In this document: positions 3,990-23,216 of the stretch, in pieces
Layout: every line of letters starts with the position of its first letter
Numbering within the stretch: the first letter of the stretch is position 1
Assembly (NCBI GenBank): GCA_963726785.1
Contig: CAVSDJ010000007.1
Coordinates: 2,484,615 to 2,548,614, forward strand
Direction of reading: 5' to 3'
Source of the DNA: Blastocatellia bacterium
GTDB lineage: Bacteria > Acidobacteriota > Blastocatellia > UBA7656
Length of the DNA: 64,000 nt
The notes under the pieces: model-generated
Databases searched by the model: none
The model's input: only the letters and a program-made list of their open reading frames with translations
What the model was told of the DNA's origin: nothing
Program-made: the position numbers and the translations under genes

Positions 3990-4469
3990 TTTGCTGCTCC
4001 TAATTTTCTGATGGCGAGCCATGTGCGCGGCCCAATTACTCCCATCAAGATTTTAGTCGCCTGCGCGCAGGCAACACAAGACCTCCAACCCAGAATCTGA
4101 GACTCTTCGGATTGCGTCTTGCGTTGCCTGCAAACTTCACCTTTGAAAACAATCATATCCGCAGCAGCCCCTGAAATCAGGTCTGACTATTAAAAACCTC
4201 TCTAACTCGCCGGAAAATCTCGTTCGGAGACAGAAGCTGCGATGAAGAAAGAAAGCGATAAATCACCTGATTTGTTGAAGCATCCTCATCATACGTCATT
4301 AAGTTTGACTGATGGTTCTCGTCTACAAGAAGGGCCAGCTTGTTATCGAGATCATGGGCGAGGTAGCATCCGCGCGCTTTTTGCGAGTTCAGTATTCTTC
4401 CCGACCGCGAAATTTTCCACAGCTTGTGTGTTGAAGGGATGGAGATGCTTTTCGGTCAATCGAGACAAG

Positions 4470-4511
4470 GAAGCGGTGACAGGCTGACTACCCATAGCCT
4501 GTCACCGCTTC
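4470..4511 (-). terminator. 16-bp perfect stem-loop 3' of precursor A2 (terminator or mRNA-stabilising hairpin)
   Basis: GAAGCGGTGACAGGCT-N10-AGCCTGTCACCGCTTC, 25 nt downstream of the precursor stop. Confidence 0.7.
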
Positions 4512-4535
4512 TTGATCTGTCAAACGTGAGAGGTC

Positions 4536-4658
4536 TTATCCGTGGCAATTAGCGCCCCATGAGCACGACCCTTCGGCCAACTGCTGGAGTTGCTCATCGG
4601 TCAATTCATTTTCCATGGACTCTGTCAATTGCGATTCGAGAATTTCCTTGGTCTCCAT
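4536..4658 (-). CDS. RiPP precursor peptide A2 (40 aa, METKEILESQLTESMENELTDEQLQQLAEG-SCSWGANCHG); not in ORF track
   Basis: Manual translation; GAAGGAGA RBS; 30/40 identical to the precursor at 26529-26651; ELTDEQL leader motif. Confidence 0.93.
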   Translation of the reverse strand: METKEILESQLTESMENELTDEQLQQLAEGSCSWGANCHG

Positions 4659-4696
4659 ACTTTCTCCTTCACTTAATGGTGTGTCATGCGGGTCAC

Positions 4697-4725
4697 AATG
4701 TATCATATCTAACTAAACCATACAA
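4697..4725 (-). promoter_or_regulatory. putative sigma70 promoter of precursor A2
   Basis: TTGTAT-N17-TACATT with TGn extended -10. Confidence 0.45.
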
Positions 4726-4746
4726 GTAAGTACGAGTACAAATTTA

Positions 4747-6765
4747 TTACATGACGGTGTCTGCAGTTGAAAATTCGCTTTGCCAGGCAGGCACGTCCGT
4801 GTAGCCGCCTGGAAACTCTTCGAGCGAGTCGGGAATGCGACTGACTTCGCGCAAGGCAAGACGCATATATCTATCGTTCAGCCCCAAAAGTATTCGGCGC
4901 TTCTGCAATTCATCGAGCACGTTTTGCACCTTTTCAACAGAAAGGTTTGAATGTCCGCCTTTTGCCAGGGCGCTCAAGATGCCGCTGCTGGTGTGTATGT
5001 CATCGCATACTTTATAAATCTCGCAAGCGAGACCATCAAGAATATGCGAGGAAGACACAGCGCAAGGGCGCGTATCTTTGATATGTATGCGGTTTTCTTC
5101 TTCCTGCATCACAAGGACAGGTTTTTCTCTCGTTGTTTCCATGCCTCCCTGTCCCCAGAGCATGTTCCAGACGGCGAGAGACTTCATCACTCTCTTGAGA
5201 TGAGGCCGTCTTTCGAGTTCTTCTTTCGCAGACCGCCTTTCCTGATCGTGGAAATAGTAAGCCAGGTCTTGCATCTGCGCGGAAGCGACCGGGTAGACAT
5301 AATTGTAAAGAGGGAAGGGCGTGAGAGAGAGTCCGAAACTTTCCGGCCTCTGGTGATAAGGACTGAAGCGGTGAAATTGTATGCGGTCTACACCGGGCGG
5401 CTGGAGGTGCGAGACCATCGGCAGCCATTCGGCCATCTCGCCATACCATTCGTCCTGTTCGCCGGGTACGTCCCAAAGAAAATTCCAGGTGATGAAGACG
5501 CCGATCTCTCTGGCCCACTTGAGAAGCCTGACGTTCTGTAGCGCCGTCGTGCCTTTGTCTATAAGCTTGAGAATTTCGTCATGCATGCTCTCGATGCCGG
5601 GTTGGAGCCTGCGGATTCCGGCTTCTGCAATCCGTTCCAACTGATCTCGCTTCAGATTCGCCTTGGTTTCAAAAAAGAGTGTATAAGGCTCGCCAGCAGC
5701 AAGGCGCGGAAGAACAGTCTGAATGTAAGACAGATCAAGAATGTTATCTACGATATTGAACTTTCGGATGCCGTACCGCTGAGACAATCCTTCCAATTCA
5801 GAGATCACACGGTCAGAACTCTTCGAGCGAAAAGCCATGTTGCCGCCGTTGAGACCGCAAAAAGTGCAATGATGCACCTTGCCCCACCAGCAACCGCGCG
5901 ATGTCTCCATGGCAAGCCCCGGCGAGATAAATTCTCGTAATGGAGAGAGACGCAACGCCGCGAAGTAGTCATCAAAATCGGGCATAGGCGTTTGATCCAT
6001 CTGTTGGACTGAAGCGCGAGGCGCTTCAGCATTGAAAATCAAACCCGGATGTTTGCCACTGATGACCCCCAGAGGCAATTCTTGAGCAGGGATGTTTTTC
6101 CCTGACGTGAGAACCTTGCGGCAAAGATCGGGGAAGATATGATCGGCTTCTCCAGAAACGACGAAGTCAATCCATGGGAAACACTTCCTGACTGCTATGC
6201 CCATGGCTCCTTCGCAGTTCGCTCCGCCTATCACTGTTACGACCTCGGGGGCCAGCTCGCGGATTTTTCTGAGCACTGCAAGAGATGCGCAGTGTTGCAT
6301 GAATGTGGACGTGCAGCCGACGATCCTGGGCCGTTTCTCCAAAACTCGATGGGCTACATTTTCGATGAACGCGGGCGCAGCTTCTCGCGCTTTCCACAAA
6401 GCAGCGCGCGGGTCAGAATCGAAGCCGCTTCTGCGCAAAAGCCCCCGCGAGACCGCGGCGGAAAGCACTGCGTCCAAATAAGCATCATGATCAGGATGAA
6501 AGTCCGGGAAAGCCGCTCCTGCGAAAGCCCACTCGCCCGCAAGAAACTCTTGCTTGCTATCGCTGATGAAGACGTAAACATCAAGTCCTATTTCTTCGGC
6601 AAACCAGACGCACGGGTAGAGATTTGATACGGAAATATCTGCCTCGCGCACGGCGGCTTTGAGCAAGCCCAGCGCCATTGACGGCTGATTGAGAGGAGGA
6701 AATGGCATAGACAGCAAACACACGTCAGACGTTTTCCCCGCATCGCTCTCAGATTTGTCAGGCAT
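4747..6765 (-). CDS. B12-binding radical SAM RiPP maturase (probable C-methyltransferase, TIGR03975/PoyC-like)
   Basis: N-terminal MPF..L.QPS.ALG.L, B12-binding region (GGANCEG), SRGCWWGKVHHCTFCGLN (Cx7Cx2C); start at MPDKS after AGGAG. Confidence 0.88.
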   Translation of the reverse strand: MPDKSESDAGKTSDVCLLSMPFPPLNQPSMALGLLKAAVREADISVSNLYPCVWFAEEIGLDVYVFISDSKQEFLAGEWAFAGAAFPDFHPDHDAYLDAVLSAAVSRGLLRRSGFDSDPRAALWKAREAAPAFIENVAHRVLEKRPRIVGCTSTFMQHCASLAVLRKIRELAPEVVTVIGGANCEGAMGIAVRKCFPWIDFVVSGEADHIFPDLCRKVLTSGKNIPAQELPLGVISGKHPGLIFNAEAPRASVQQMDQTPMPDFDDYFAALRLSPLREFISPGLAMETSRGCWWGKVHHCTFCGLNGGNMAFRSKSSDRVISELEGLSQRYGIRKFNIVDNILDLSYIQTVLPRLAAGEPYTLFFETKANLKRDQLERIAEAGIRRLQPGIESMHDEILKLIDKGTTALQNVRLLKWAREIGVFITWNFLWDVPGEQDEWYGEMAEWLPMVSHLQPPGVDRIQFHRFSPYHQRPESFGLSLTPFPLYNYVYPVASAQMQDLAYYFHDQERRSAKEELERRPHLKRVMKSLAVWNMLWGQGGMETTREKPVLVMQEEENRIHIKDTRPCAVSSSHILDGLACEIYKVCDDIHTSSGILSALAKGGHSNLSVEKVQNVLDELQKRRILLGLNDRYMRLALREVSRIPDSLEEFPGGYTDVPAWQSEFSTADTVM

Positions 6766-7070
6766 ATTTTCTCCTATAGAGGACAAGCAAGTCTGCAATT
6801 ACGCCCCGAACCCTTCTGGAATCAAATGGACACAGGCAAACCTGTGAGGCTCGCCATTAAGAAGTTTTATTTTCAGGTTTCTCGTCTTACCTTGCCGCCG
6901 GGTAAGATGGATTCCGCCCCGGCGGTGTGTTATTATAACTACGCTTCAGTGGTTTGTCATCTCTGCGAATTAGTAAAATTACGTTTCGGCGATTAATATA
7001 ATTAAAACGGGCGATTTTATAATCGCCCTGTGAAAAATCATACATTGTTGAAGGAGATAAAGATATAGCG

Positions 7071-8102
7071 ATGCCACAAAGCCCTCCTAGCCGGTTCCCG
7101 GCATATATACAAACATCAGCCGACGCTGCGAAGTATCTTGCGCCGCATTGTGTGCCGCCGTTCTTTTCCGGCGACAGCTTTGCAAACGTTTTAAAAAGAG
7201 CAGAAGCGCTTCCGGCGGCTCTCTCGCTGAGTCATCTGTTTGAACGTCCTATAAATGTGGAGGCCCACCCCGTAGATTTTTTTCTATGGATTCCCGGCAA
7301 TGGCCGTCGCGACATTTTGGCCGGAGCCAGCGAAGGCATACCGGATGCTTTTTACGCACACAACTCCTGGAGGCGAATTCGTGATTTTGCCCGCGAGTGG
7401 ATGGACGAAGCCTCGCCTTTGCATGAAGTGCGTTCGTTTTGGCTAGAGTTCGACATTCGCGGCGTGCCCGAAGGCATTCCTGTGCCGTTGATCTTTTTCA
7501 CTGTTGAACAGAATCTATCACCCAAACCGGCGATTGAACTTTTGCAGGACAGACCTTTCGCTTCACCTCAGCTTGCAAACTTTCGCCGCTGCTGGGAAGC
7601 GATTCCTGACACGTGCCGCTATCGCACAGCAGGCATACTTTATTCGCGGCCCACTGACGCGATTCGTTTTATTTTGATCATGACGCCGGACGAAGCATTT
7701 CCTTATCTCGAACGCATCGGCTGGCCTGGCTCTGTCGTTGACCTCAACAAGCGATTCGAAAAGTTTTTTCGCTTTCATAATCAAGTGTCCCTGCACTTTG
7801 ACGTTCACCCGGAAGGCGTAGAGCCGCAAGTCGGCATGGAAATCTACGTTGATGAACCGGCAATGTATAAAGGTCGCGGCGGAGATTGCTCGCCCTTGCT
7901 TGATCTCGCCGTAGAGCAATCGCTTTGTCTGCCGGAAATTCGTGATGCGCTTGTCAAATGGCCCGGCTCGGACACATTTCAGCTACTAGACAATCAAGAG
8001 ATGCGCGTGGACCGAATGTTTCACCACATGAAGATAGTGAGCCGATCAGACCTCAGTCTTTATGCCAAGGCATACACAACCGCTGAGTACGAGGTTAGGT
8101 GA
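7071..8102 (+). CDS. putative peptide prenyltransferase (paralog of 25317-26360)
   Basis: Shares WLEFD, LHxD(V/I), G.E, H(I/M)KIV, AKAY motifs with 25317-26360; co-located with isoprenoid genes; function inferred. Confidence 0.55.
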   Translation: MPQSPPSRFPAYIQTSADAAKYLAPHCVPPFFSGDSFANVLKRAEALPAALSLSHLFERPINVEAHPVDFFLWIPGNGRRDILAGASEGIPDAFYAHNSWRRIRDFAREWMDEASPLHEVRSFWLEFDIRGVPEGIPVPLIFFTVEQNLSPKPAIELLQDRPFASPQLANFRRCWEAIPDTCRYRTAGILYSRPTDAIRFILIMTPDEAFPYLERIGWPGSVVDLNKRFEKFFRFHNQVSLHFDVHPEGVEPQVGMEIYVDEPAMYKGRGGDCSPLLDLAVEQSLCLPEIRDALVKWPGSDTFQLLDNQEMRVDRMFHHMKIVSRSDLSLYAKAYTTAEYEVR

Positions 8103-8957
8103 TGGCGACGGATTTGGCCCAAACAGATTGGTTTCGACTCCGCACGGTTGACATCGCTCAAGTGGACGAACTTGCAGAAACTCTCGATGACTTCGCGCGG
8201 CACGCCATTGATGCATTAGTGATTCGGAATGTATACACGGCTGATTACATGCAAGAGATCAGCAGGCGGATTGAATTGCACGATCCGCCTTTTTACATTT
8301 TCCCTCCCTTTGGCCCTCCCGAAGAAGTGAGGAAATACAAGCATCTTTACGGCGTCACCCTGGTGGCTACCGACCCGAAGTTGATTGAATATTTCAACGC
8401 GGCGAAGAGCTTCCGCAGAGCATTGTCGCGAACTCTTTCGCGATGGCGATGACTTTGAGGAGCGCATCCGCCACATCTTTTCTGTGCTTTCAGAAGGCCG
8501 CCCCGTCGTTCTTCCGAAAGCACAGGCCGGTCAAATCTATATGCCCGCCACGATTCGCATTCTGCCGGAGGGCTCGACCATAGATCTGCATTGTGATAAT
8601 AATCTCAGTCATCATCCCAACTATGATCACTTGAGAACCCTGTGTGATGTGAATAATCAATTGAGCTACTTCGTGACGATAAACGCGCCGGACGAGGGAG
8701 GCGAGTTGGTTATCTACCGGCGGCAATGGTCTGCCGGTGACGACGCGCTCAATCAATATGATATGAGAAAAGATGATTCGATGGTCGAAGATTACGAATA
8801 TTTCTCTGTAAAGCCAGAGCCGGGCGACCTGATACTTCACGCGGGGGGACGCGTCTATCACCGGGTGACGCAGACAATCGGCCCACGCACGCGACACACT
8901 ATCGGCGGTTTTGTGGCAAATGCTCTCGACAGCAATACATTGTATTACTTTAGCTAA
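8099..8957 (+). pseudogene. Fe(II)/2-oxoglutarate oxygenase split by a +1 frameshift near 8417 (real or sequencing error)
   Basis: ORFs 8099-8452 and 8385-8957 join as ...AAKSFR-EHCRELF... if one base is removed (TTC CGC A GAG CAT); HCD...GGEL...YHRV...R motifs. Confidence 0.75.
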
Positions 8958-8995: not shown

Positions 8996-9559
8996 ATGGA
9001 AGAGCTGATACTGGTAAACGAAAACGATGAAGAAATCGGAGTCGGCGAGAAGCTCCAAACTCATCGGGAGGGGAAATTACACAGAGCCTTTTCGATCTTT
9101 ATTTTCGATTCTGCCGGGCGACTCCTGATGCAAAAAAGGTCTACATCGAAATATCATTCCGGCGGCCTGTGGTCGAATACTTGTTGCGGCCATCCACGGC
9201 CCGGCGAAAAAGTCGAAATGGCTGCGCATCGAAGGCTGAAAGAGGAGATGAATTTCGATTGCTCACTTCAATTTTGTTCCAGTTTTATATACAGAGCGGA
9301 GCTTGATCACAACCTGATTGAATGGGAACTCGATCATGTTTTTGCCGGAGTCTACGATAACGACCCGGACCCGGATGAAGCAGAAGCTGAAGACTGGCAG
9401 TGGGTTGATGTGAATGATCTGAAAGCCGGAATAGAGACGCAGCCTGACAGGTTTACATACTGGCTGAAAATAGCTCTGAGCAAATTGAATCTGGCGGCAA
9501 TTGCTGGCCTCGCGGCAAACGAACAATCAGCGAGCAATCAAAAACAAAATAGTTTTTGA
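8996..9559 (+). CDS. idi: isopentenyl-diphosphate delta-isomerase type 1
   Basis: LHRAFSIFIF, LWSNTCCGHP, EWELDHVF, FTYW Nudix IDI motifs. Confidence 0.96.
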   Translation: MEELILVNENDEEIGVGEKLQTHREGKLHRAFSIFIFDSAGRLLMQKRSTSKYHSGGLWSNTCCGHPRPGEKVEMAAHRRLKEEMNFDCSLQFCSSFIYRAELDHNLIEWELDHVFAGVYDNDPDPDEAEAEDWQWVDVNDLKAGIETQPDRFTYWLKIALSKLNLAAIAGLAANEQSASNQKQNSF

Positions 9560-9567
9560 GCTAAACG

Positions 9568-10218
9568 ATGAGCCGATTGGTCTATCAATTCGGACTGCCT
9601 CGCAGCGGCCTGTACGCCGTCGCAGAGTGGTATATAGATGGCATCGGCGAAGCGTGCCAACATCGAATCGGCGGAGGCTTCAAAGACATCTACGCGAACG
9701 TCAGTGGTTCAACGTCTCACCTCGCTACCATTGAGGCGCTGTCAATCGAGAATGTGCAAGAGGGCCTCGCGCATTGTGAAAAGATTGGAGCAGAAACCTG
9801 GGTTCAACTCCGCGACCCGTATAACTGGCTCTCCTCTTTGCAGCAGGGAATTAATTCCTATGCCGTCGCGTGGCGACCCGATTCGCCTCTAGGTCTGTGG
9901 AAAGATTACGCTCGGCATTGTTTGAATTGTGCGTCCTATATCAACTACAACAGGTGGTTCAGCGACCCGAATTACAGGTGTGAATTGGCCGGGCGCTTCG
10001 CATTCCAACAGCGCCGCAATGGAGAAGCCTGGGAACATGTGCCCGGTAGAGGAGGCGGCAGTTCGTTTGACGGCGAGCGATTTGCGAATCAGGCTCAAGC
10101 AATGGCAGTGCTTGAGCGTTACGCGCGTTTTGTAGACGACGCTTCGTTCCGCGCTCAATTCGATGATGAAGTGATTGCGTTGGCCGAGCAGTTATTCGAC
10201 ATGAAACGGCCTTGGTGA
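9568..10218 (+). CDS. sulfotransferase-like P-loop protein
   Basis: GLPRSG (5'-PSB-like) and LRDPYNW (3'-PB-like) motifs. Confidence 0.5.
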   Translation: MSRLVYQFGLPRSGLYAVAEWYIDGIGEACQHRIGGGFKDIYANVSGSTSHLATIEALSIENVQEGLAHCEKIGAETWVQLRDPYNWLSSLQQGINSYAVAWRPDSPLGLWKDYARHCLNCASYINYNRWFSDPNYRCELAGRFAFQQRRNGEAWEHVPGRGGGSSFDGERFANQAQAMAVLERYARFVDDASFRAQFDDEVIALAEQLFDMKRPW

Positions 10219-10254: not shown

Positions 10255-11880
10255 ATGAGCGTTTCATGGGGAGAGCAACTAGATCATTTATTTGCAAACT
10301 GGAACACGTCTGATAGTCCGGGCTGCGCTCTTGGGGTTTATCAGGAAGGCAAAACAGTCTACAAACGCGGTTATGGCATCGCGCATCTTGAGCACGACAT
10401 TGCTATAACTCCCTCGACCGTCTTTCATATAGCATCGCTTTCCAAACAGTTCACTGCGATGGCAATCGGTCTGCTGGCTCGTTCGGGTCACATTTCGCTT
10501 TCCGATGACATACGAAAATACATCCCTGAACTTCAGATAAGCTCTGCCATCACTTTTCGCCAGATCATCCATCACACCAGCGGACTCAGAGACCAATGGG
10601 ATATGCTGCGTCTGGGCGGCTGGCGCGATGCGGACATCAAGACGAACGGTGACATCCTGAGACTGGCAGCCTCTCAAAAGGAAATGAACTTCGCTCCCGG
10701 CACGCGCTTCCAATACATCAACACGGGCTATACGCTGATGGGCATAGCCATCAAACGCATCACAGGGAAATCGCTTCGCGAATATACGGATGAAAATATG
10801 TTCGAGCCTCTGGGAATGCGAAGCACCTTCTTTCACGACGATTATGGAAAGGTTGTAAAGAATCGAGCGCAGGCCTACTCTCGCAACAAAAGCGACCAAC
10901 TCCGTATAGACATGCCCGCGTATGAGACTGTAGGCCCGACAAATCTTTTTTCTACCGTGGAAGACTTCGAGCACTGGGAGCGAAATCTACTCTCGCCGAC
11001 CGTCGGCGACAAAGACTTTATCAAACAGATGCTAACGCCCGGCTCGCTTGATAACGGTCAGCCCGTGAGCTACGGCTTCGGGTTCATCACAGGCAATTAT
11101 CGAGGACTGGAAACCGCCGAACACGCTGGCGGAGATGCGGGTTATCGCGCTTACTTCCTTCGATTCCCTGAAGAGCGATTTGCGGTCGCAATCTTCAGTA
11201 ACTTTTCGAGAGTAAATCCGGGGCAACTTGCGCACGAAGTCGCGGACATCTGTCTGGCCGAACGCTTCAAAGCTGAAAGTTCAGACAATCAGGAGATTCC
11301 TGCGTGGGCCGGTCGCGCCGCGGGCATCCGAACGCCTCTCTCTGTTGATCTCGATGGCAAGAGCGGTTTGTACAGAGACAGCCTCAGCAGCATGACTTGC
11401 CGGATTGAATCTCGCGGAGGTCGCATCTTTCTTGATGCGAGTGCTGGCGGAGAATATGAGTTAGTCGTGGTCGAAGAGAATCATTTTCGGTTTCTCAATG
11501 CTGATGCGGAATGTCTCTTCACGCCTGCTACGGCAGATCAACCCGTGCGGATGACCGTCAAGTATGCGGGACAAGAGACGGCTCTGTGCGAACGCATTAC
11601 CGATGAAGAGATAGCGCCTGATTTCAGAGCCGACGAATACGCAGGAACTTACCAGAGCGAAGAACTCGATGTCCAATACACTATTGAACTGTCAGGCGAA
11701 GAGATTATTTTGCGGCGCGTTAAATTCGAGCCAAGCCCTCTTGTCTTATTTGCTAAAGATGAATTTTCGGCTAACGATGAAGGACTGCACATTCGCTTTG
11801 CGCGAGACGATGCGGGCCAGATCACAGGATTGACCCTCAATGCCGAACGGGTCTGGAATGTCCGCTTTGATCGCCTTTGA
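10255..11880 (+). CDS. serine hydrolase, beta-lactamase/D-aminopeptidase family, with C-terminal beta domains
   Basis: SxxK (IASLSK), YxN (QYIN), HAG motifs; no evident signal peptide. Confidence 0.88.
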   Translation: MSVSWGEQLDHLFANWNTSDSPGCALGVYQEGKTVYKRGYGIAHLEHDIAITPSTVFHIASLSKQFTAMAIGLLARSGHISLSDDIRKYIPELQISSAITFRQIIHHTSGLRDQWDMLRLGGWRDADIKTNGDILRLAASQKEMNFAPGTRFQYINTGYTLMGIAIKRITGKSLREYTDENMFEPLGMRSTFFHDDYGKVVKNRAQAYSRNKSDQLRIDMPAYETVGPTNLFSTVEDFEHWERNLLSPTVGDKDFIKQMLTPGSLDNGQPVSYGFGFITGNYRGLETAEHAGGDAGYRAYFLRFPEERFAVAIFSNFSRVNPGQLAHEVADICLAERFKAESSDNQEIPAWAGRAAGIRTPLSVDLDGKSGLYRDSLSSMTCRIESRGGRIFLDASAGGEYELVVVEENHFRFLNADAECLFTPATADQPVRMTVKYAGQETALCERITDEEIAPDFRADEYAGTYQSEELDVQYTIELSGEEIILRRVKFEPSPLVLFAKDEFSANDEGLHIRFARDDAGQITGLTLNAERVWNVRFDRL

Positions 11881-11893: not shown

Positions 11894-14006
11894 TCAGTCG
11901 TCTGACAATGGGCTGATCCTCACTTCCAACCCGCTGCCGAAAGGGCCTTCGCCATTTTGAAGCTGCCACAGGGAAGCGTAAAGACCTTCCTGTGCGAGAA
12001 GCTCTTCGTGATTGCCCTGCTCGCGAATCTTTCCTCTTTCGAGAACGAGAATTTTATCGGCGTTGCGAATCGTGGATAACCTGTGAGCGATCATGATCAC
12101 GCTCCTTCCTGTCGCGGCATTTTGGAGCGATCTTTTTACTGCGGATTCAGTTTCATAATCAAGGTGCGAAGTCGCTTCATCAAGAGCCAGAATCGGCGCT
12201 CCTTTCAACAACGCTCTCGCGATTGCCACGCGCTGTCTCTCCCCTCCCGATAGAAGTCGCCCGCGCTCTCCCACTTCGGACTCCAAGCCGCTGGGCAAGG
12301 ACGTGAGCATACCCAGTGCGCTTGCGTCGCGCATCGCGGAAATGATTCGCTCTTCGGAGGCGTGGGGCTGGCCGTAGGTCACGTTTCCCTGCACAGTTCC
12401 TTGAAATAAATATACATCCTGACTGACCCAACCTATGGCCGCTCGCAGGTCTTTGAGATTCATCGTTCGGATGTCCTTGCCATCTAAAAGTATTCGCCCT
12501 GAGTCAATATCGTAAAAGCGCATGAGAAGGCGCAGCATTGTGCTTTTGCCGGAGCCTGTCGGGCCTACGATGGCGAGCGTTTCGCCGGGTCGCAAGTGGA
12601 AGGAGACGTTTTCTAAAACTTTCACAGAAGGAAAATATCCGAAAGTGACATCATCAAAGACTATCTCTCCGCGCACTGTGCTGGCAGGAAGAAGGATCGG
12701 GCCGCTGCGGATTTTCGGACGAGAATCCAGGATTTCTGTCAGACGCTCTGCTGAATGAGTTGCGCCATAATACAGTCTGGTGAGTTGTTCAAGCCCCATC
12801 GAGAGAGCCCATCAATTGTGGAAACCAGTAAACAACTCGGAGGTATTCGCTCGGCGACATTCTTCCCGAAGCAAGCAGTTGGCCCCCATACCAGGCCGTC
12901 AATGTGAATCCGCTGAAAAAGATGCCTTGAGCAAGGTGTGATTGGATCGATGCCACGACTTCGGCTTCCATTGCGGCTTCTTCCAAGCGCAAATTGCTAT
13001 CGTGCAATCGGCGCGTTTCCTGCCGCTCGCCCGTGAAGCTCTTTACATCGGCAATGCCTGCGAGATTGTTTTCGAGCTTCTGATTATACTGGCTAGACAT
13101 TTCTCCCAGGCGGGCATAACGCTCGGCGGCTACTCGTCCAAAAAAACGAGAGGACAGCAGAATGAAAGGCAAGGGCAGGCAAGCGAGAATCGCGAGCCTC
13201 GGCGATGCGCTGATTAGAAAAGTGCTGGCGACGCCTATGGTCAGTGATTTCTCGATAACCTCGTCGCCCGCTTGTTCGACGAAACGTTTGATCTGCGCCG
13301 TGTCTTCTGTGACGAGATTGATGAGCGAGCCTGTATTATGGTCGTTGAAAAACGACAAGTCCTGACCTTGAATTCGCGCAACCAGTCTGGTGCGAAGTCT
13401 GTGCTCGGTCGCGCGGGCAAGCTTTCGCCATGCCTTCCTCCGCTTATACTGAACCCATAAATCTGCGCAGGTTAAAAACACACTCAGGCCGCTCATGAAG
13501 GCAAGGCGGGAACCCGTTTTGACCAGGCCCAAAGTTCGCAAGAAGCCCGGCCCCTCTCCTCTGGCCGTGTTCACTGTCCCGATGAAAGAGAGACCTTGTA
13601 GTATGTGAAGCGAATGGCCCAGAACAGATAAAGCAGGTGGGGCGATTAGCTCTTCACGTTTCGGAAGAGAGGATTTGAGGATGCGTGTTAAAGCATTCGA
13701 TTTTTTCGCAACTCTGATTTCAGAAAACTTGCGGTGAGAAAGCCTTTGCAGATTATCGCGGAGAAGCGATTCTACGTTAAGGTCGGAATATTCGGGAGAG
13801 TAAGTAACAAGAACTCTGCCTGATACGGGATTGGCGCGAACATCTAAAACGCCCGGATGTTGCAGGATGGCTTTTTCCAACTCCTGCGCCAGGTCTGGCC
13901 TTCTTAGTAAAGCCTTCACCTCCCAGCGTTCTCGCCCGCGTGTTGCAGACCTGAGGCGCATCTGATACGGGTCAGTCATTGAGGCATCTTTCTTATCGTT
14001 TATCAA
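11894..14006 (-). pseudogene. ABC exporter (N-terminal HMA2-like domain + TMD + NBD) split by a +1 frameshift in a G4 run at 12794-12797
   Basis: ORF 12789-14006 (TMD) and ORF 11894-12799 (GPTGSGKST, LSGGERQR, LDEAT) fuse as GSLDG-LEQL if one G is removed. Confidence 0.8.
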
Positions 14007-14260: not shown

Positions 14261-14734
14261 TCAAGTTTCCTTATTCGTCTTCGACGACGAAGGCCTCTTT
14301 TTGGATGAGGGCTGCCTTCTCTTCGCAGCGCTTTGAGGTAGAGAATAAGCAGACTGGGAACTATCATCTTTTACCGCTCCTGTTTGGGAAACCGGAGGCG
14401 ATTGAGTAGTGAGAGCAGACTGGGAACTATCAGATGCTTTTATCTCAGTGTAGCCATCTTGATGGCTACACTGCTCTTCCTTCTTTTGGCCGATTCCCAG
14501 CCCGAGGTGTTCGTGGATGTGACGACCAGTCGTGGCTTTCGTAAACGAATTGGCAGAGACCGCAATCAAACCGGGAAGACCGAACATTGATCTGGCGATT
14601 AAACCCAGCGCAACATGAATCGCGCCTTGCGCGAGATCACCTTCTACAAGGTTGCTTCCACCCGGCAAGATATATTCGCTGGCAAGCTTAGCACTATTCT
14701 TCAGAGGCTCAAGTTCCTCCGCTTCGTTCTTCAT
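14261..14734 (-). CDS. small hydrophobic protein, paralog 2, with low-complexity S/Q/K tail
   Basis: PGGSNLVEG..QGAIHVALGLIARSMFGLPGLIAVSANSF shared with 14772-15050; GGAG RBS. Confidence 0.75.
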   Translation of the reverse strand: MKNEAEELEPLKNSAKLASEYILPGGSNLVEGDLAQGAIHVALGLIARSMFGLPGLIAVSANSFTKATTGRHIHEHLGLGIGQKKEEQCSHQDGYTEIKASDSSQSALTTQSPPVSQTGAVKDDSSQSAYSLPQSAAKRRQPSSKKRPSSSKTNKET

Positions 14735-15159: not shown

Positions 15160-16635
15160 TTATACTCGATCACATTTTTCTGCAAGCATGCTCCCGGCTT
15201 TTTCCAACAGTTCTTCATCGCTATTGAGAAGATCGTTGTGCGTAGGCAGATGTAGCAGGTCGGGCACCACTCCGATGCTTTCTAAAAGTTGGTTTGACCG
15301 CTTGCGCACCCTTCGACACCTCCGTACTGCGACCCTGAACGTTGGGGCATCAGGCATAGGCTGGAACAACTCGTTGCCGGACAAATTGAAAATCGTAGAT
15401 TGATGCCAGGGCGACGCCCCACCTCCGCCCGTGCGACGCGCGGTTCCAAGCACGCGCCCTATAGCATGATCTTGGAAGCCTGCGGCAAACATCTCTGCAC
15501 TGCTGTAGGTCAGCGCGTCTACGATCACTACGACTGGGCCGAGGTATTTCTGGCCGACGGCGTTCGCTTTCTCCAAAGAGGTTAAAGGCAAACATCGCGA
15601 ATACCTATCTTCAGGCGGCGCTGAACTTTCGATTGCATCGCGCCATCCGTGAAGCGCGGGGCTGACGTTAATAATTTGCTGAACTAGGTCTGTCATCCTG
15701 AACTGAAACGGTTGAGGCTCGATTTTTGCCGGAGTGAAAAGCTGGAGCAGTTGTTCTGCCGTAGAAATAATGCCGTCCTCGCATGCGCGCAAATCCAATA
15801 TCAATCCTTCTTTGGGCAGAGATTCAAGGGCTTCGACAAAAGGCTTCAAAAAGGCATCGGGCCGCGCATGAAAAGAAGCGACTCGAATATAACCGAAGTC
15901 GCCGAAGGAAGTCTTAACAACTCGCGCTTGAAAGGATTCGTTTGAAAAATCGTTTTCTTCTTTTTCCACCTGGAAGACCGGAGCAAACCGGCGCATAAGA
16001 TAAGACATTTCCGCCACTCGCCACTCCAGCCGCATCTTTCGTCGTTGCCCATCAAGGCTAATGCTTTCCAGTATCACATCCCCTTCGGGCGGAGGCAGAA
16101 AAGCCAGCGGGCGAAAGGTCAAAGTCTGCACAGCCTTTGCGAGTCTCGCTTCCGTGTTGGCTCCGAGCTGAAGCGCCATGTGTTGTTCGAGCGTTTTCGC
16201 CACGGGGTCGCCGTTCCACGAGATTAAAGTGTCGCCTCGTTCGAGGTCGTCTATCCCGGAACCCACAACAGCAAGACGTTGCTTGCCGTTTTTAAAATAT
16301 TCTTTCACAAGGAAAGGAAGGAACGCCGTCTTTTCAGCGAAGGGCTTTGGCAGGAAACATTGTGTGTGCCGGTCTCCGATCTCTGCAAAAATCGAGAGCA
16401 GCGCGTGATAAAAGTGTGATGTGCTTTCGGGGAGATTCGAGCGCAGGTGATCCAATCGCTTTACGGGGTCAATGCCTCGCTCTCTAAGGAATGGCAGATG
16501 CACACAAGCCTGATCCAGCAAAGCTCTTGCCTGTGCGATGATAGCCTCGCATCTCTTTTCGCATATTGCTTCATCCCATTGCTTTACCGCTGCGAGCGGC
16601 TCTGTAGGGTTTTGCCTGTCCGCAGATTTCTCCAT
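15160..16635 (-). CDS. S41 family (tail-specific) peptidase
   Basis: GYIRVASF, LILDLR, TYSSAEMFA catalytic Ser motif, TGGGG, GVVPD; PDZ-like region. Confidence 0.82.
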   Translation of the reverse strand: MEKSADRQNPTEPLAAVKQWDEAICEKRCEAIIAQARALLDQACVHLPFLRERGIDPVKRLDHLRSNLPESTSHFYHALLSIFAEIGDRHTQCFLPKPFAEKTAFLPFLVKEYFKNGKQRLAVVGSGIDDLERGDTLISWNGDPVAKTLEQHMALQLGANTEARLAKAVQTLTFRPLAFLPPPEGDVILESISLDGQRRKMRLEWRVAEMSYLMRRFAPVFQVEKEENDFSNESFQARVVKTSFGDFGYIRVASFHARPDAFLKPFVEALESLPKEGLILDLRACEDGIISTAEQLLQLFTPAKIEPQPFQFRMTDLVQQIINVSPALHGWRDAIESSAPPEDRYSRCLPLTSLEKANAVGQKYLGPVVVIVDALTYSSAEMFAAGFQDHAIGRVLGTARRTGGGGASPWHQSTIFNLSGNELFQPMPDAPTFRVAVRRCRRVRKRSNQLLESIGVVPDLLHLPTHNDLLNSDEELLEKAGSMLAEKCDRV

Positions 16636-16638: not shown

Positions 16639-19600
16639 TCACTCCCACGCCAGAACGCAGGGCAAGCTTTGCGGATGGGCGATTCTCAAAAGCTCGAAGC
16701 CGATTCCTGAAAGCCCTTGAAAGAACGAAGGGTCGAAGAAATCCTTTCCCGGCTGACCCGACAGCCTGTAACCGCCCGACCTGCGCGCGCGCTCCACAAC
16801 AACGGAAGCCAGTTCAACGACTTGGCGTTGCAACTGCTCATCTGCACTCTGTACTGATGCGGCAAGCATCATGTCCACTCTGCCAAGATTGCCGCAGCAC
16901 AATCCATCTTTCTCTCCTATCGGAGATTCTGTGACCTTTTTGAGAGCCGCGTTGATGTCCTGCCTGACTTCGTGTGAATCGAAGAGCGGCAGGCCGGACA
17001 TGCGAGCCAGTCCTATCCCTGCTGCGCCGTGACACCATGCGTTCATAAAGACGGAGCGATCATTCGACGAGTAACGAAAGTCTGGCCAGTTATTTTCAGT
17101 GGCATCGAATACCGAATCCTCGAACTCTATGGCTTTCTGCGCCGCCCAGTGGAATCGTTCTTCGCCTGACGCTTCGGACAGCCGCAGCAACGCAAGAGCG
17201 ATACCCGCAGCTCCATGAGAAAATCCCGTCATGAACTTGCCGTTTATCGCGCGCCACGATGCGCCTTTTCCGGCAGACTCTTGTTTTTTGAGCAAGTGAT
17301 CTCCGCAAAGCACAGCTTTTTTCACGACCGCAGAATCTCTCGTTGCTTCGTATAATGTCAGCAGCCCCAGAATCGCCCCGGCTGCTCCTGACATAGTATC
17401 GAAATTATTGTCAGCGGCTATCCATTCGGGCGTGATTCGTTCAGATGCCATGACCGCATCGGCAAAGAGCGCAGGCTCTTCAAGCAACACCGCGCACCGG
17501 CTTAGGCCGTAGATGAAAGAGCCGACCCCTGTCGCTATGCCGAGGTTGTATCCTTCGCGAATCATTCGAGTAGGGTCTGCCGTAGAAACAAATCTCCGCA
17601 ATGACCGAAGAGCGGAAAGCGATGTGCGACGACCAGTGTCCTGCACACGCTCCATGGCAGCAAAAAACAGCGCGACTCCTGCAATGCCATTGTATAAATC
17701 CATTCGCAGAGGACGCAGTTCGTGATGACTGGCGTGCGGTAGAAGCTGGGGCGCAATCCATGTGACTTCGTCGCGAAAGAAAATGGCGCGGCTCTCGATC
17801 TCTGCGGCTATGGCATTTGCTTCTGCGATCAGTTCGTCTGAGGTAAGCAATGAGATTTCATCCGGACTCCAGCCTTGGGCGGTTTCATCTGAGGCAGACT
17901 CATGCCCGACGGAAATGGACGAGACGCGCAACGCGGCTCGGATGAAGCCTGTCTGCATATCCATATCAGCCCGGTCGAATGATGCGAGCCTCTGCCGCAC
18001 ACGGTCGAGCGCCGTATCTTCAAAAACATTTTCCAAAGCATTGCCTGTTGGCAGAAAGAGAGAACGGCTGTTGGCAAGCACTGTAAATCGCGGAATGTCG
18101 AGCCGCTCCATCGCATCCACTTCGGCCTTTAGCAGAGGCCACAGCCGCGACTTATCCGAAGATTCAAGATAGAAGCGGCTGAAGACATCCGTTTCGATGC
18201 TGCGTTCAACACCGCTCCTCATATAGCGCGGGGCATACAACTTCTTCAGCAGCAAACCTGAGATGCGCGTTGCGTGAAAGAGTATTCGTATCTCTTGTTT
18301 TCCGAGCGCATCTATTAGCCCATCGGGAGCCGTCAATTCTTCTCTGAGTTCCATAAGCAATTCGTACATGTGACGGAACCCGGAGACTATCTCTTCTGCG
18401 TATTCGGCGGCTGTCAGCGAGACGGCGTTCAAGTGAGGAAGATGTTTTTCGGAGTCTACAAAAATCGGCTCATGCTTAAGCGACATGGAATCGGTGTTGA
18501 CGTTTTTCCAAACCCTCTTTTGATAAGGCGTGAGCTGACCTGCTTTCGCGCCAAGTCCGCTGATGTCTACACAAATCCCATTCTGACCGGCTTCCCAGAA
18601 TGGCAGAAAGCCCGCGCGGAATACAGAGGCAAACATTATGTTATCGGCCACTTCATTAGCGGGCGAAAGGTCAGCGCCGCGTCGAAGTGCGGGGCGCATG
18701 AGAGTCTCCATGTCTATAAGAACCGGGTAGCCTCCGCAGGCTATGATGTTCTCGTAGAAGCAATCAGAAGCTTCCAGCGCGTAAAGCAGGCAAGCCGTCA
18801 TGCCTGCGCGATAATAAAACTTTTTCGCTTCGTCACTATTATTACAATCGGCGTACTGCGCGACTTCCACCCATCCGTGACTTCCCCTGTCCAGCACTTT
18901 CAAAAGTCGGAAATCGCCGCCGCGTTTGTTGAGATGCTCAAGCAGAGAAAACCATGCTTTTTCAATACCGAGGGCGCGCGGTTTATGGACTAACTTCAAT
19001 CCGCTTTCAAATTCCAGAATGGTGACCGTGCGCCCCTCATTGTGTCTATCCGAAAGCGATGGATGCACAGCAACAACTCTTTCGACCTCTTCGCTATCAT
19101 TGAATACTTTTTGAATCGCTGGCAAATCAGCTTCCAGCGCGCAGGCCATCTCAGAGACGTTTCGCGCCCAGAGTTGCACAGTGATGGAAAGCAGGCGGGC
19201 CAGCACGGGGTATTCGGAAAAAAAATTCCAGAGCCTTCCGGCGAGCAATCCGGTCGCAAATTTTTCGTAAAGCCCTGTTTCATCGCGAGCCGCCTCTTCA
19301 GTGTATCCATGCTCCGAACGAAAGACTGAAAATTCCAGATAGAAGGTCGGGGCCGCGATGTGACTCAGTTCTCGCAAGAGATCGTCCGTCAGTTTAGCGA
19401 GAATCTCCGGCGATAAAAGTAAACGACAAGAGGGCGCGAGCATCCCGAAGCCGGTCTTTGCGAAAGGGAAGAGGATTGCCTCAAACGGATGGCCGGATGG
19501 CTTTGAAGCTTCGATCATTGTTGGCGCGGCATCCATCGCTTCGATGAACACTAGCGCCCATTGCGGAAACTCGCCTTCAAGGCGAACTTTTCCAAGTATG

Positions 19601-19809
19601 TTGAAAACTTTTTCCGGTGTGGTATCGAGCCAGGAGAGTCGTTTCTCGAATAGATTTGAGTTATTTAGCGCGGCCCTTTCACTCCATCTTTCAAACCGGG
19701 CCTCTGCCAGTCTTGCGCTGTCGGTATCAAGTTCTGGTACGTAAGAACCTTCGAGGCGTTCCCAGAGAGTCGAGGCATCAGCCACTATCTGGCGCAAAAA
19801 GTTGCTCAC
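16639..19809 (-). CDS. lanM: class II lanthipeptide synthetase
   Basis: DUF4135 dehydratase (SDRHNEG, HKPR, DxxYEN, IDMETL) and LanC cyclase (GFSHGAAG, WCHG, LCCG, FFQGLSG). Confidence 0.95.
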   Translation of the reverse strand: MSNFLRQIVADASTLWERLEGSYVPELDTDSARLAEARFERWSERAALNNSNLFEKRLSWLDTTPEKVFNILGKVRLEGEFPQWALVFIEAMDAAPTMIEASKPSGHPFEAILFPFAKTGFGMLAPSCRLLLSPEILAKLTDDLLRELSHIAAPTFYLEFSVFRSEHGYTEEAARDETGLYEKFATGLLAGRLWNFFSEYPVLARLLSITVQLWARNVSEMACALEADLPAIQKVFNDSEEVERVVAVHPSLSDRHNEGRTVTILEFESGLKLVHKPRALGIEKAWFSLLEHLNKRGGDFRLLKVLDRGSHGWVEVAQYADCNNSDEAKKFYYRAGMTACLLYALEASDCFYENIIACGGYPVLIDMETLMRPALRRGADLSPANEVADNIMFASVFRAGFLPFWEAGQNGICVDISGLGAKAGQLTPYQKRVWKNVNTDSMSLKHEPIFVDSEKHLPHLNAVSLTAAEYAEEIVSGFRHMYELLMELREELTAPDGLIDALGKQEIRILFHATRISGLLLKKLYAPRYMRSGVERSIETDVFSRFYLESSDKSRLWPLLKAEVDAMERLDIPRFTVLANSRSLFLPTGNALENVFEDTALDRVRQRLASFDRADMDMQTGFIRAALRVSSISVGHESASDETAQGWSPDEISLLTSDELIAEANAIAAEIESRAIFFRDEVTWIAPQLLPHASHHELRPLRMDLYNGIAGVALFFAAMERVQDTGRRTSLSALRSLRRFVSTADPTRMIREGYNLGIATGVGSFIYGLSRCAVLLEEPALFADAVMASERITPEWIAADNNFDTMSGAAGAILGLLTLYEATRDSAVVKKAVLCGDHLLKKQESAGKGASWRAINGKFMTGFSHGAAGIALALLRLSEASGEERFHWAAQKAIEFEDSVFDATENNWPDFRYSSNDRSVFMNAWCHGAAGIGLARMSGLPLFDSHEVRQDINAALKKVTESPIGEKDGLCCGNLGRVDMMLAASVQSADEQLQRQVVELASVVVERARRSGGYRLSGQPGKDFFDPSFFQGLSGIGFELLRIAHPQSLPCVLAWE

Positions 19810-20990
19810 CGGGTCTCTTCCACCTCCAGAAGACCATCACGAACCAGTCGCCGCGCCAGCACGAGCTTTTCTCGTTCAGTAAGATCACCTGCTATAGAAC
19901 GAACAGAGAACGAACGATGCTGGGCGACATAACGGAGAGCGGGGGCGATTTTTTCAGGCCCCAGAAGTTTCCCGCCTGAATATTGAATGGCCGCGTAGCC
20001 CGGCCCTTCGAGTGCGCGGCAAATCACTCCCTTGCGCCGCACGAGCACCGTATCTATGTCGAGTTCGGCCTCTTTTGCAAGCAGGTCGTCGCCGGGTGGA
20101 GGCGGGCTTTGAACGATCAATTTTTCCGCGAGGCGACCCATGCCATCATCAAGGCTCAAGTATTGCGGCAATGCGGCGAGCAATTCAGGAAACAGATCAT
20201 GCAATTCATTCGCTTTGTTGAGAAATCCCGGCGGCAAAGCCTTCCTGAACCTTTTGTCGTTTCTGGCAGCAGAGACTGCCGCAGAAAAAAGATCTATCCA
20301 CGTGACGACGTTCACACCAATCGTCAGATGCAGTGACGCAGCGCCGGTCGTGCGGGCCGCGTGAATGTATCCGCGAGGCAGATAAAGAACACTGCCTTCT
20401 TTCAGTTCTTCCTCTAGCACAATTTTTGAAAGGCTATCTTGAGGCAAGTCAGAGTGTTCGTCCCGAAGCGGCAATTCTTTTGCAGGTTCTCGCACCTCCC
20501 AGATTTTGCTTCCTTCCAACTGGAGGACAAAAACATCCATGATGTCGAAGTGAGGATTGAATGCCTGCGTGCCGGGCGGCGTGTAATACATGTTGACATT
20601 GAGCGGGTGGTGCAGGTCTTCTTGAAGAGCGGCTGCAAACAGCGCGACAGGTTCCCACAACTTGCCCAGATCATTGACGACGATAGTGTAACCGTCACGC
20701 ACAGCCGCGCTCACTTTTTCCAGGCGCGGCGACCCGTCCGGATTAGTCCAGTTGCTGTCATTATGGCGACTGCCTTTAATCAGCACCAAATCTTCAGGAG
20801 GGCCGGGTCGCAGGTAATGCAAAAGCCGCCCGATGTCGGCGGACGAAAACAGATGCGAGAATCGCCCCTCGTTGCCTGAAACCGCAAGCGGGCGCTTCTC
20901 CCAGTATTCATCTGAAAACTGCGATGGCGTGATTGGATAAATCAGTTCTGCCAGGCTCATTGATTGCGTCCGTTTCGTGTGGCTTTTCAA
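19806..20990 (-). CDS. JmjC/Cupin_4 (ROXA/NO66-like) 2OG oxygenase
   Basis: F..EYWEKRPL, Y.TPP, PHFD, LQLEGSKIW, YLPRGYIH, SLHLT; C-terminal winged-helix-like region. Confidence 0.88.
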   Translation of the reverse strand: MKSHTKRTQSMSLAELIYPITPSQFSDEYWEKRPLAVSGNEGRFSHLFSSADIGRLLHYLRPGPPEDLVLIKGSRHNDSNWTNPDGSPRLEKVSAAVRDGYTIVVNDLGKLWEPVALFAAALQEDLHHPLNVNMYYTPPGTQAFNPHFDIMDVFVLQLEGSKIWEVREPAKELPLRDEHSDLPQDSLSKIVLEEELKEGSVLYLPRGYIHAARTTGAASLHLTIGVNVVTWIDLFSAAVSAARNDKRFRKALPPGFLNKANELHDLFPELLAALPQYLSLDDGMGRLAEKLIVQSPPPPGDDLLAKEAELDIDTVLVRRKGVICRALEGPGYAAIQYSGGKLLGPEKIAPALRYVAQHRSFSVRSIAGDLTEREKLVLARRLVRDGLLEVEETR

Positions 20991-22240
20991 GCCAGCGTCA
21001 GCAGCCCTGTACGCACCAGCCTTCGGACAAGTATCAACTTTTCGTTGTCGTTGAGCGAACCCGGCAAAGAGGCCGGTGTGATGGTTTCAGCATCAGCTAT
21101 GTGCCGCAGAGCATCAATGATTTTCGCGGGGCCGAGTAGCTGATTCCCCGAGAACTGAATCCCTGCTACTCCGTTTTCCTCAAACACTCTGGCTAAAGTT
21201 GTGCGGCGCTTTCTCAAAAGCGTGTCGGGGCCTATAGCTGCGTTCAACACGGAGAAGTGCCCGTCAGCGGGCGGCGGATTTCTGACGGCGAGTACCTCGG
21301 TGTGCTTGCCCACAGCATCTTTGTGATTCGCCTGACTATGGAATATGTCCATAAATTGGCTGAACTCGTTTGCGAGAGATTGCATTACTGTTTCGTCATT
21401 CAAGAAACCAGCGGGCAGAGAACGACGAAATCGCGGATCACGTTCAGCCATAGCGGCCAGCGCGTCGTAGAGAAAATCGAACCATGTGCGAACGTGCACA
21501 TCAACTGTGATGTGCAGCGAAGGCTTATCGCCCGCCATGCCTTCGTGCACGAAACCTCTGGGTATATACAACGCGTCGCCCGGATTGAGAACTGTTTCGC
21601 AAATCGGCTCTGACAGCTTTTCTCTGGGCACGGGAGCATACGAGCCTTCGACGGGCGGAAACTCATGCAAAGGCTTGTATACCTTCCACTGCTTTGAGCC
21701 TTCGACCTGAAGCAGGAAGTTTTCCTGCGTGTCATAGTGAGGTTTGACGCCGTGAAAGTTCGGCGGCGATAAGTAAACAGCCATGGCGATTGGATGATTC
21801 AAGCATCCTTCCAACGCTCGCGAAAACAGAGTGAGCGGTTCCCAGGTCTGTTCCAGCCCGCTCAATATGACAGTGCTTCCTTTAAGGTAGCTTTCGATCA
21901 CCAGATTGACATTAGCCGTGCCGTCGCTGCTCAGAAAGTTATCGCGGACAAAGCCCTCTTCAGTGACAAGATCAAGTCGTCCGGGTTTGGGTTTGAAATA
22001 GCAGATCGCTCGATCAATATCATTGATGGAGAAAAGCGGAGTGAAGAATTCAGCCGGTCTTCCCTTGCTTACGAGCGGGCGCTTCTCCCAGTATTCCGCG
22101 AAAAACTTCTCCTGCGTCAGCGGAGCTATGATGTCTTCAAACCTGATCTCTTCGGCGCTCTTGATACCGATTTCCTGGCGCTCGAAAATCTCTGTCTCTT
22201 CCTGGTCTAGGGCTGTCATCTGTTCCTTGCTCATGGACAC
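20987..22240 (-). CDS. JmjC/Cupin_4 (ROXA/NO66-like) 2OG oxygenase, paralog
   Basis: FFAEYWEKRPL, PHYD, LQVEGSKQW, YIPRGFVH, SLHIT. Confidence 0.88.
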   Translation of the reverse strand: MSMSKEQMTALDQEETEIFERQEIGIKSAEEIRFEDIIAPLTQEKFFAEYWEKRPLVSKGRPAEFFTPLFSINDIDRAICYFKPKPGRLDLVTEEGFVRDNFLSSDGTANVNLVIESYLKGSTVILSGLEQTWEPLTLFSRALEGCLNHPIAMAVYLSPPNFHGVKPHYDTQENFLLQVEGSKQWKVYKPLHEFPPVEGSYAPVPREKLSEPICETVLNPGDALYIPRGFVHEGMAGDKPSLHITVDVHVRTWFDFLYDALAAMAERDPRFRRSLPAGFLNDETVMQSLANEFSQFMDIFHSQANHKDAVGKHTEVLAVRNPPPADGHFSVLNAAIGPDTLLRKRRTTLARVFEENGVAGIQFSGNQLLGPAKIIDALRHIADAETITPASLPGSLNDNEKLILVRRLVRTGLLTLA

Positions 22241-23179: not shown

Positions 23180-23216
23180 TTTTTCTTCCCTTCGCTACTC
23201 GCTTCGATTGTATCAC

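Follow-up and report, generated by a model that had tools for sequence, protein, structure and literature searches.

The 64,000 nt stretch of a Blastocatellia bacterium analysed here (hereafter the window; its genome is G000) contains two short genes, A1 and A2, that encode precursor peptides of one RiPP family (peptides synthesized on ribosomes and modified after translation). A2 is a real, conserved gene and is very probably a true precursor of the pathway encoded around it. We further regard it as likely that A2 is translated as a second LanA-type precursor of a single RiPP pathway of about 23 kb, in which A1 and A2 would be converted to congeners by one enzyme set. The cluster, with borders set at about 4.5-27.9 kb of the window, thus turns from a single-precursor system into one read as having two substrates. 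Its enzymes include a B12 radical S-adenosylmethionine (rSAM) methyltransferase, a class II lanthionine synthetase (LanM), two prenyltransferases (PT1 and PT2) and a terpene cyclase. The conservation of the precursor genes and the presence of the enzymes are observed directly; each step of the pathway proposed below is predicted from them.

A2 is a minus-strand open reading frame (ORF) at 4536-4658 including the stop codon, and encodes 40 aa reading METKEILESQLTESMENELTDEQLQQLAEGSCSWGANCHG. It consists of a predicted 30 aa leader ending in LAEG and the core SCSWGANCHG, which contains two Ser and two Cys, and so has the N-terminal leader and C-terminal core layout of a LanA precursor. The ribosome-binding site, GAAGGAGA, is at 4663-4670 on the minus strand, 4 nt before the ATG. 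A sequence-only reading of the window had proposed a second precursor with a ribosome-binding site at this position, and ORF, translation and site could all be read directly. The first precursor, A1, is at 26529-26651 on the minus strand, reads MESKQTYESELTEVMENELTDEQLLQLAEGSCTWGANCGS and has the core SCTWGANCGS. The two peptides share 30 of 40 residues (75 %) and their genes are about 21.9 kb apart, in agreement with the identity and the 22 kb previously reported. Both contain the leader motif ELTDEQL (L-x4-L) and each has one Trp. The L-x4-L motif together with a Gly at the leader end, a hallmark of class II LanA peptides, is found in A2 with the motif as described in PMC12715784. An alternative in-frame ATG at 4706 would give a 56 aa peptide. 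Relatives do not conserve this extension, whereas they do conserve the METKE start and the AAGGAGA site. A 56 aa version that is 98 % identical to A2 exists as a public record (P0140). Hence, although A2 falls below the ORF cut-off used in the sequence-only reading, its description there as hidden holds only in that sense, as metagenome gene callers do call relatives.

The degenerate DNA pattern for W-G-A-N-C occurs at exactly two sites in the window, those in A1 and A2, and two or more matches were seen in none of 100 shuffles. In a six-frame search of the whole 8.93 Mb assembly, A1 and A2 were likewise the only copies (E 7e-22 and 7e-15). Taken together, these results exclude a chance origin of the pair. 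Searches of the precursor peptides against Pfam and NCBIfam gave nothing except chance-level zinc-finger matches.

A same-class profile search, made in six frames over 401 genomes including G000, gave matches in seven genomes. The matches in two of these, G372 and G387 (E 0.006-0.009), proved false: the ORFs are longer, resemble sigma factors and have an ELPLST-type stretch in common. Both genomes were dropped from the counts. The true carriers are G000, G041, G159, G065 and G324. Two copies were found in G041, which is of the same genus as G000 (23.2 kb apart), in G065, from a different genus (18.9 kb apart), and in G324, from a different family (in tandem). G159, also of the same genus, has one copy in a fragmented assembly. 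Between G000 and G041, the A2 codons differ by nine synonymous and one non-synonymous change (pN/pS 0.03), and between G000 and G065 by 17 and five (pN/pS 0.07). The sequence AAGGAGA lies at the right distance upstream in 7/7 orthologous or paralogous precursors examined. That A2 is not a gene, being a chance ORF or the relic of a decaying duplication, could be suggested by its short length and its location outside the main operon. This explanation retains practically no probability, as it is refuted by conservation: the pN/pS values, the conserved ribosome-binding site and position, and the 152 family members described below. These data support the proposal that A2 truly is a further precursor and belongs to the RiPP family of A1.

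Three features bear on the transcription of the precursor genes:
4470-4511, minus strand, hairpin after A2 with a GC-rich 16 bp stem, 25 nt past the stop codon
26468-26502, minus strand, hairpin after A1 with a 13 bp stem, located between A1 and PT1
6932-6960, minus strand, sigma-70-like promoter candidate upstream of the rSAM gene (ATGACA-17-TATAAT, 11/12)

The hairpin after A2 folds with a z score of -3.86, and 0/200 shuffles fold as well. It is, as judged from the sequence, a probable transcript end or stabilizer. A strong hairpin follows 12 of the 13 family precursors examined, with stem sequences that differ. One soil metatranscriptome run, available as contigs, contained 0.05 of the sampled words of 4300-7000. 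A contig of 161 nt from this library spans 4521-4681 and hence the entire A2 ORF, with one listed difference (4650 G>A, synonymous), and two further contigs of 151 nt each lie within the 3′ part of the rSAM gene. There is no contig cover over 4300-4520 and 5139-7000, and we draw no inference from these gaps. At most, the contigs hint that a closely related organism expresses this region.

The pS of 0.78 between A1 and A2 within G000 (pN 0.15) indicates that the duplication is old and that the copies have not been homogenized. Separate orthologues are present in both genera, with A1-type cores SCTWGANCG[SK] and A2-type cores SCSWGANCH with or without the final G. Four positions are type-specific in both (A1/A2: Y7/L7, E10/Q10, T33/S33 and G39/H39). 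A two-type tail pattern, NKGC versus NSGCK, recurs in Terriglobia, Bryobacteraceae and metagenome relatives. That A2 only adds to the precursor supply and has no role of its own would fit its leader and ring motifs, which are the same as in A1. However, a simple dosage copy is very improbable, as the type-specific residues have been kept across genera despite synonymous sites near saturation, and as the two-type tail pattern recurs.

A family profile search of 5.8 billion proteins (E ≤1e-3) found 152 relatives, of which the 120 listed were used for the counts that follow. Some of the records bear the names Cystobacter fuscus, Stigmatella aurantiaca, Archangium, Myxococcus dinghuensis and, in one case, Sphingomonas. 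All 120 have the leader end EL[ST]DEQL-x2-[LM][AS]EG and the core x-x-[ST]-W-G-x(2-3)-C, in which Trp4 is invariant. WGANC is present in 109, Cys at core position 2 in 103, the exact A2 core in seven and the exact A1 core in three. The core S-C-(S/T)-W-G-A-N-C, previously called invariant, is so in the lineage of the window, but in the wider family WGANC and Cys2 are only near-constant. Such constancy across phyla is unusual among lanthipeptide cores. In the Terriglobia metagenome-assembled genome (MAG) G401, a third, tandem precursor (L027:5536-5649; core MSSWGAGCNKGC) lacks Cys2, which is thus dispensable in the family. The invariant residues suggest a ring between Ser/Thr3 and Cys8 around Trp4. 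In the open-access literature, we found no paper on a precursor family with a WGANC core or on prenylated, terpene-cyclized lanthipeptides of Acidobacteriota or myxobacteria.

An orphan precursor was also seen in G403, a Thermoanaerobaculia MAG (L032, match 6001-6114; core SCSWGANCNKAC). It lies 240 kb from that genome's own cluster and its neighbours are unrelated (a methyltransferase, a spermine-synthase-like protein, a TetR regulator and a Band 7 protein).

The genes between and around the two precursors are as follows:
4747-6798, minus strand, rSAM gene for a B12 radical-SAM RiPP C-methyltransferase, on the strand of A2 and 88 nt upstream of it
7071-8102, plus strand, PT2, 343 aa, divergent from the rSAM gene, an ABBA prenyltransferase by homology to PT1
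8099-8957, plus strand, WelO5-like Fe(II)/2-oxoglutarate (Fe/2OG) oxygenase in two overlapping frames, 8099-8452 and 8385-8957
8996-9559, plus strand, Idi, type 1 isopentenyl-diphosphate isomerase (NF002995, 167.6 bits versus a cut-off of 127)
9568-10218, plus strand, 216 aa protein with a predicted sulfotransferase-like P-loop fold
10255-11880, plus strand, beta-lactamase-family serine hydrolase (Pfam Beta-lactamase, E 6e-57)
11894-14006, minus strand, ABC exporter, with the ATPase at 11894-12799 and the membrane part at 12789-14006
14261-14734, minus strand, DUF6072 protein (domain search)
15160-16635, minus strand, S41 peptidase (Pfam Peptidase_S41, E 7e-18)
16639-19809, minus strand, LanM class II lanthionine synthetase (DUF4135, E 2e-114; LANC_like, E 3e-61)
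19806-22240, minus strand, two JmjC-type Fe/2OG oxygenases (domain search)
22256-24050, minus strand, two PhyH-type Fe/2OG oxygenases (domain search)
24241-25320, minus strand, terpene cyclase, 359 aa, monodomain class II, MstE homologue
25317-26360, minus strand, PT1, 347 aa, ABBA-fold prenyltransferase as judged from its predicted structure
26795-27859, minus strand, trans-isoprenyl diphosphate synthase (Pfam polyprenyl_synt, E 9e-60) with canonical DDxxD motifs

The LanM lies 12 kb from A2 in the same syntenic block. In a whole-genome LanM search it was found together with one weak LanC-like fragment, and is the sole LanM of G000. The gene order in G041 is conserved from left of A2 to right of the prenyl-diphosphate synthase gene. 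In G065, the beta-lactamase-family and 216 aa genes (both minus strand), the rSAM gene and A2 (both plus strand) are joined to the main operon, without PT2, the WelO5-like gene and Idi. A Pyrinomonadaceae MAG, G405, has a 24.6 kb contig with the order rSAM / Idi-PT2-WelO5-216 aa-beta-lactamase / ABC ... LanM ... cyclase-PT1-precursor-synthase. A2 is not visible there because the contig ends 56 nt past the rSAM gene. G401 and G402 (a Bryobacteraceae MAG) share a unit composed of the beta-lactamase-family and 216 aa genes (minus strand) followed by the rSAM, precursor and synthase genes (plus strand). This unit is separated from one with the order precursor-PT1-cyclase-PhyH-JmjC by 160 kb in G401 and by 20 kb in G402. 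In both, the sole prenyl-diphosphate synthase gene in the loci examined adjoins the rSAM-linked precursor, and PT1 and the cyclase accompany the other precursor. The synteny in G041, G065 and G405, the synthase placement in G401 and G402, and the single LanM of G000 support one system, and the earlier proposal that the rSAM/PT2/Idi half and the LanM/cyclase half belong together is upheld on these grounds.

The sequence-only reading had also placed each precursor near its own prenyltransferase paralogue. This describes the window, where 168 nt separate A1 from PT1 downstream of it and A2 belongs to the divergent rSAM/PT2 region, but it is not general. PT2 orthologues were found in G000, G041 (90 % identity) and G405 (65 %). 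In G065, G401, G402, G403 and G404, PT2 was not found and only the PT1 orthologue was matched, at about 30 % identity. Of the five genomes with an rSAM-adjacent precursor, three (G065, G401 and G402) are among those in which PT2 was not found, and in L025 the exact core of A2, SCSWGANCHG, is encoded directly upstream of PT1. Private pairing is therefore not the rule. A stricter form of the proposal is that PT1 prenylates A1, and that PT2 and the enzymes on the rSAM side serve A2, giving two differently lipidated products. It draws on the geometry of the window, on the four type-specific positions (7, 10, 33 and 39) that differ consistently in both genera, and on the fact that PT2 keeps 14/14 invariant columns of the prenyltransferase family alignment and so is probably active. 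Against it speak the genomes in which PT2 was not found and the L025 arrangement. In addition, PT1 alone is coupled to the cyclase in translation, its stop codon and the start of the cyclase sharing 4 nt. We consider it rather improbable. A complex prediction for PT2 with A2 scored 0.02 against a mark of 0.32, a result that carries no weight on binding either way.

The second precursor is accompanied more steadily by the B12 radical-SAM methyltransferase than by PT2. Of twelve genomes with family precursors, all but G159 and the genome of L033 were surveyed for this link. In five, the precursor gene directly follows the rSAM gene, and G405 is cut at the contig end. In G404, no rSAM orthologue was found at E ≤1e-30. 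The rSAM protein matches TIGR03975 ("RiPP maturation radical SAM C-methyltransferase") with 773.6 bits, where the cut-off is 281.85. In Pfam, it matches Radical_SAM (E 6e-17), and its B12-binding match of 27.1 bits is under the cut-off of 32.1. TIGR03975 enzymes are C-methyltransferases of the PoyB/PoyC type. The cluster shares with them a match far over the curated cut-off and a precursor gene directly after the rSAM gene, but differs in its lanthipeptide-terpenoid context, which takes the place of precursors of the proteusin type.

PT1 and PT2 are paralogues of about 345 aa each (29 % identity, E 2e-30), and neither has a Pfam or NCBIfam match. A profile of the family gave no sequence-level match in PDB, and their placement comes from fold comparison alone. 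The AlphaFold2 (AF2) model of PT1, built from 40 sequences, has a pLDDT of 92.7. Foldseek gave 25 matches to PDB at E ≤1e-3, and all among those listed are ABBA aromatic prenyltransferases (TM about 0.34-0.53). They include 5-/6-DMATS, IptA, PriB, AnaPT, CloQ and FunA, with PatF and PagF at weaker E values. Leads from a protein atlas agree with this placement, and PT1 is, by its modelled fold, an ABBA prenyltransferase. Its 102 homologues, all labelled hypothetical, are in Acidobacteriota, Myxococcota and Chloroflexota. The cyclase aligns with MstE (PDB 6sbg) over residues 9-353 of 359 (E 2.7e-56) and is also weakly like squalene-hopene cyclase. The aligned part includes a G-D-A-D segment corresponding to the D-x-D, whose role in MstE is taken from PMC12324236. 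PT1 and the cyclase are two ORFs in the window and in 13/13 relative loci with both genes visible. The PT1 orthologue of G041 (L021:6303-7339) was matched in two pieces, 6303-6743 and 6734-7339, with an overlap of about 10 nt, a sign that this MAG has a frameshift or was misread in sequencing.

The closest known systems are prenylated lanthipeptides. In Moorena producens, MppE is cyclized by the LanM MppM and then geranylated on the ring Trp by the ABBA enzyme MppC, in a reaction dependent on both the leader and the L-x4-L motif within it; MppE has an atypically long leader of the Nif11 type (Wakeel et al. 2025; PMC12715784). A LanM gene, a gene for an ABBA prenyltransferase and the L-x4-L motif are shared with the cluster in the window. 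The differences are that MppC adds C10 and no cyclase follows, and that the leaders described here have 30 aa. According to PMC13290415, NctPC is an ABBA transferase fused to an MstE-like cyclase that attaches C20 to Trp and then cyclizes it, and ChrPC does likewise with an isoprenyl diphosphate synthase (IDS)-like transferase. The original study of NctPC and ChrPC (Hubrich et al. 2024, Chem 10:3224) is compared here as represented in PMC13290415 and PMC12715784. On that basis, both have an ABBA-fold peptide prenyltransferase, an MstE-like monodomain class II cyclase and a short core containing Trp, are set in a lanthipeptide context, and encode the supply of the prenyl donor within the cluster. 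In contrast to those fused proteins, the transferase and cyclase are here two genes with a 4 nt overlap, and there are in addition a second prenyltransferase paralogue, the B12 rSAM enzyme, five 2OG oxygenases, the sulfotransferase-like protein and a remote second precursor. Since the same parts occur as two overlapping genes, and the precursors have ELTDEQL and a single Trp, the best reading is that of a split and more decorated variant of the NctPC type, and judged against NctPC and ChrPC as summarized in those two articles it appears to be new.

A comparison with systems that have more than one precursor is also instructive. Prochlorosins are made by one LanM from several precursors, some of them encoded far away, and have hypervariable cores. 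The family described here differs in having a core that is near-invariant across phyla and a remote copy with a fixed enzyme neighbour. Two-peptide lantibiotics are pairs of dissimilar, synergistic peptides, usually with one LanM each; the window has a single LanM and two peptides that are 75 % identical. The mature products of A1 and A2 could nevertheless act jointly, like those two-peptide lantibiotics that are made by one LanM, and the long purifying selection on distinct paralogues in several lineages fits such a role. We consider this distinctly improbable, because A1 and A2 have nearly the same ring motif in addition to their high identity. Moreover, a single precursor was seen in 3 of 12 genomes, in each case on a short contig (L025, L029 and L033), and two more have a tandem pair (L022 and L034).

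In the pathway that we propose, transcription of A2 would accompany that of the rSAM gene or come just behind it, ending at the strong hairpin. The leader, with its ELTDEQL motif and AEG end, would bring A2 to the sole LanM, which would dehydrate Ser/Thr3 and link it to Cys8, giving a (methyl)lanthionine ring of six residues with Trp4 inside. PT1 would then place a long prenyl chain on Trp4, using a donor supplied by the prenyl-diphosphate synthase and Idi of the cluster, and the MstE-like cyclase would cyclize this chain. Later tailoring might involve the five Fe/2OG oxygenases (WelO5-like, two JmjC and two PhyH), the rSAM C-methyltransferase, PT2 and the sulfotransferase-like protein. The S41 peptidase, a candidate leader protease, would cut the leader and the ABC pump would export the product. 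A1 and A2 would in this way yield two congeners, with methyllanthionine (from Thr) in A1 and lanthionine (from Ser) in A2, and with the tails GS and HG, respectively. The best NCBIfam matches of the synthase are GGPP-synthase-like (geranylgeranyl diphosphate), all below equivalog cut-offs. The residues that precede its first DDxxD at -4 and -5 are small, which by the usual chain-length rule argues for a C20 or longer product.

A different reading of the same genes is that the rSAM-linked and PT1-linked precursors are an anciently split, functionally distinct pair, in which only the rSAM-linked member is C-methylated, and is doubly prenylated where PT2 exists. A single conserved target would sense the two products or be acted on by them jointly. 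This would explain why [ST]-W-G-A-N-C, in contrast to the cores of ordinary lantibiotics, is nearly frozen from Acidobacteriota to Myxococcota, and the family would then be nearer to a conserved signal or a cofactor-like lipopeptide than to a variable antibiotic. We regard this as unlikely and retain the reading of A1 and A2 as congeners made by one enzyme set.

Several observations weigh against the congener reading. The hairpin after A2 was not called by a consensus terminator scan, which missed it because it lacks a T-run, and it is therefore not a canonical intrinsic terminator. The promoter candidate is a consensus match, with one site found versus 2.4 expected in shuffles. The RNA evidence consists of three short contigs, 95-99 % alike, from one library in which DNA carry-over is possible. 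They come from an organism that is closely related to this strain but need not be identical with it. Adjacency of the rSAM and precursor genes is not universal: in G403, G406 and G407, the rSAM orthologue (60-74 % identity) is not followed by a precursor, and the contig of G405 stops 56 nt after the rSAM gene. The predicted pathway gives core residue Cys2 no role, and the ring topology, prenylation site, chain length and rSAM target are all putative.

A second precursor alone would be ordinary for lanthipeptides, and the near-invariant family that it exposed is the more valuable part of the result. The 152 precursors and 102 PT1 homologues define a large uncharacterized family, whose members are, from their sequences, probably lanthipeptides with a cyclized terpenoid on Trp. 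Acidobacteriota are rarely cultured. The chemistry may be testable in the Myxococcota carriers, namely Cystobacter fuscus, Stigmatella aurantiaca and Myxococcus species; for some Myxococcota, a precursor and a PT1 homologue are both on record. The near-invariant core and the recurrent rSAM-precursor unit provide concrete hypotheses for enzymology, and the split prenyltransferase and cyclase may be easier engineering parts than fused PC enzymes.

Some further genes of the cluster deserve comment. The Pfam profile of WelO5 is divided between the two overlapping frames, with profile positions 3-96 in the 8099-8452 ORF and 91-277 in the 8385-8957 ORF. The gene is intact as one ORF in G041 (285 aa) and G405 (284 aa), and the split in this genome reflects a true frameshift or else a fault of the assembly. 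The 216 aa protein has no Pfam or NCBIfam match. Its AF2 model (pLDDT 90.5) gave SULT7A1, SULT4A1 and TPST2 as the best Foldseek matches (E 2e-4 to 2e-3, TM 0.42-0.56), and the protein atlas also gave a sulfotransferase lead. On this basis, the protein most resembles, though weakly, 3′-phosphoadenosine-5′-phosphosulfate (PAPS) sulfotransferases. It has conserved P-R-S-G and R-D-P stretches, presumably the PAPS-binding loops. Its gene adjoins the beta-lactamase-family gene in five relatives and in the window, and is on the rSAM side wherever an rSAM gene is present. The beta-lactamase-family gene holds its place in the cluster in every relative with the region visible.

Lanthipeptide exporters often have a C39 peptidase domain at the N-terminus. 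No C39 domain was detected in a domain scan of the ABC exporter; at the N-terminus of its membrane protein (12789-14006, minus strand), the scan gave a weak match to a heavy-metal-associated-like domain (HMA_2, E 3.5e-5, below cut-off). An Rfam scan found nothing in the cluster, e.g. no cobalamin riboswitch, and outside it an Acido-Lenti-1 RNA (RF01687) at 47637-47682 on the minus strand (37.5 bits versus a gathering score of 37). Finally, about 60 kb left of the window (G000:C7:2424952-2426766) there is a further radical-SAM gene that is TIGR03975-like; it shares 32 % identity with the neighbour of A2 and may mark another RiPP cluster.

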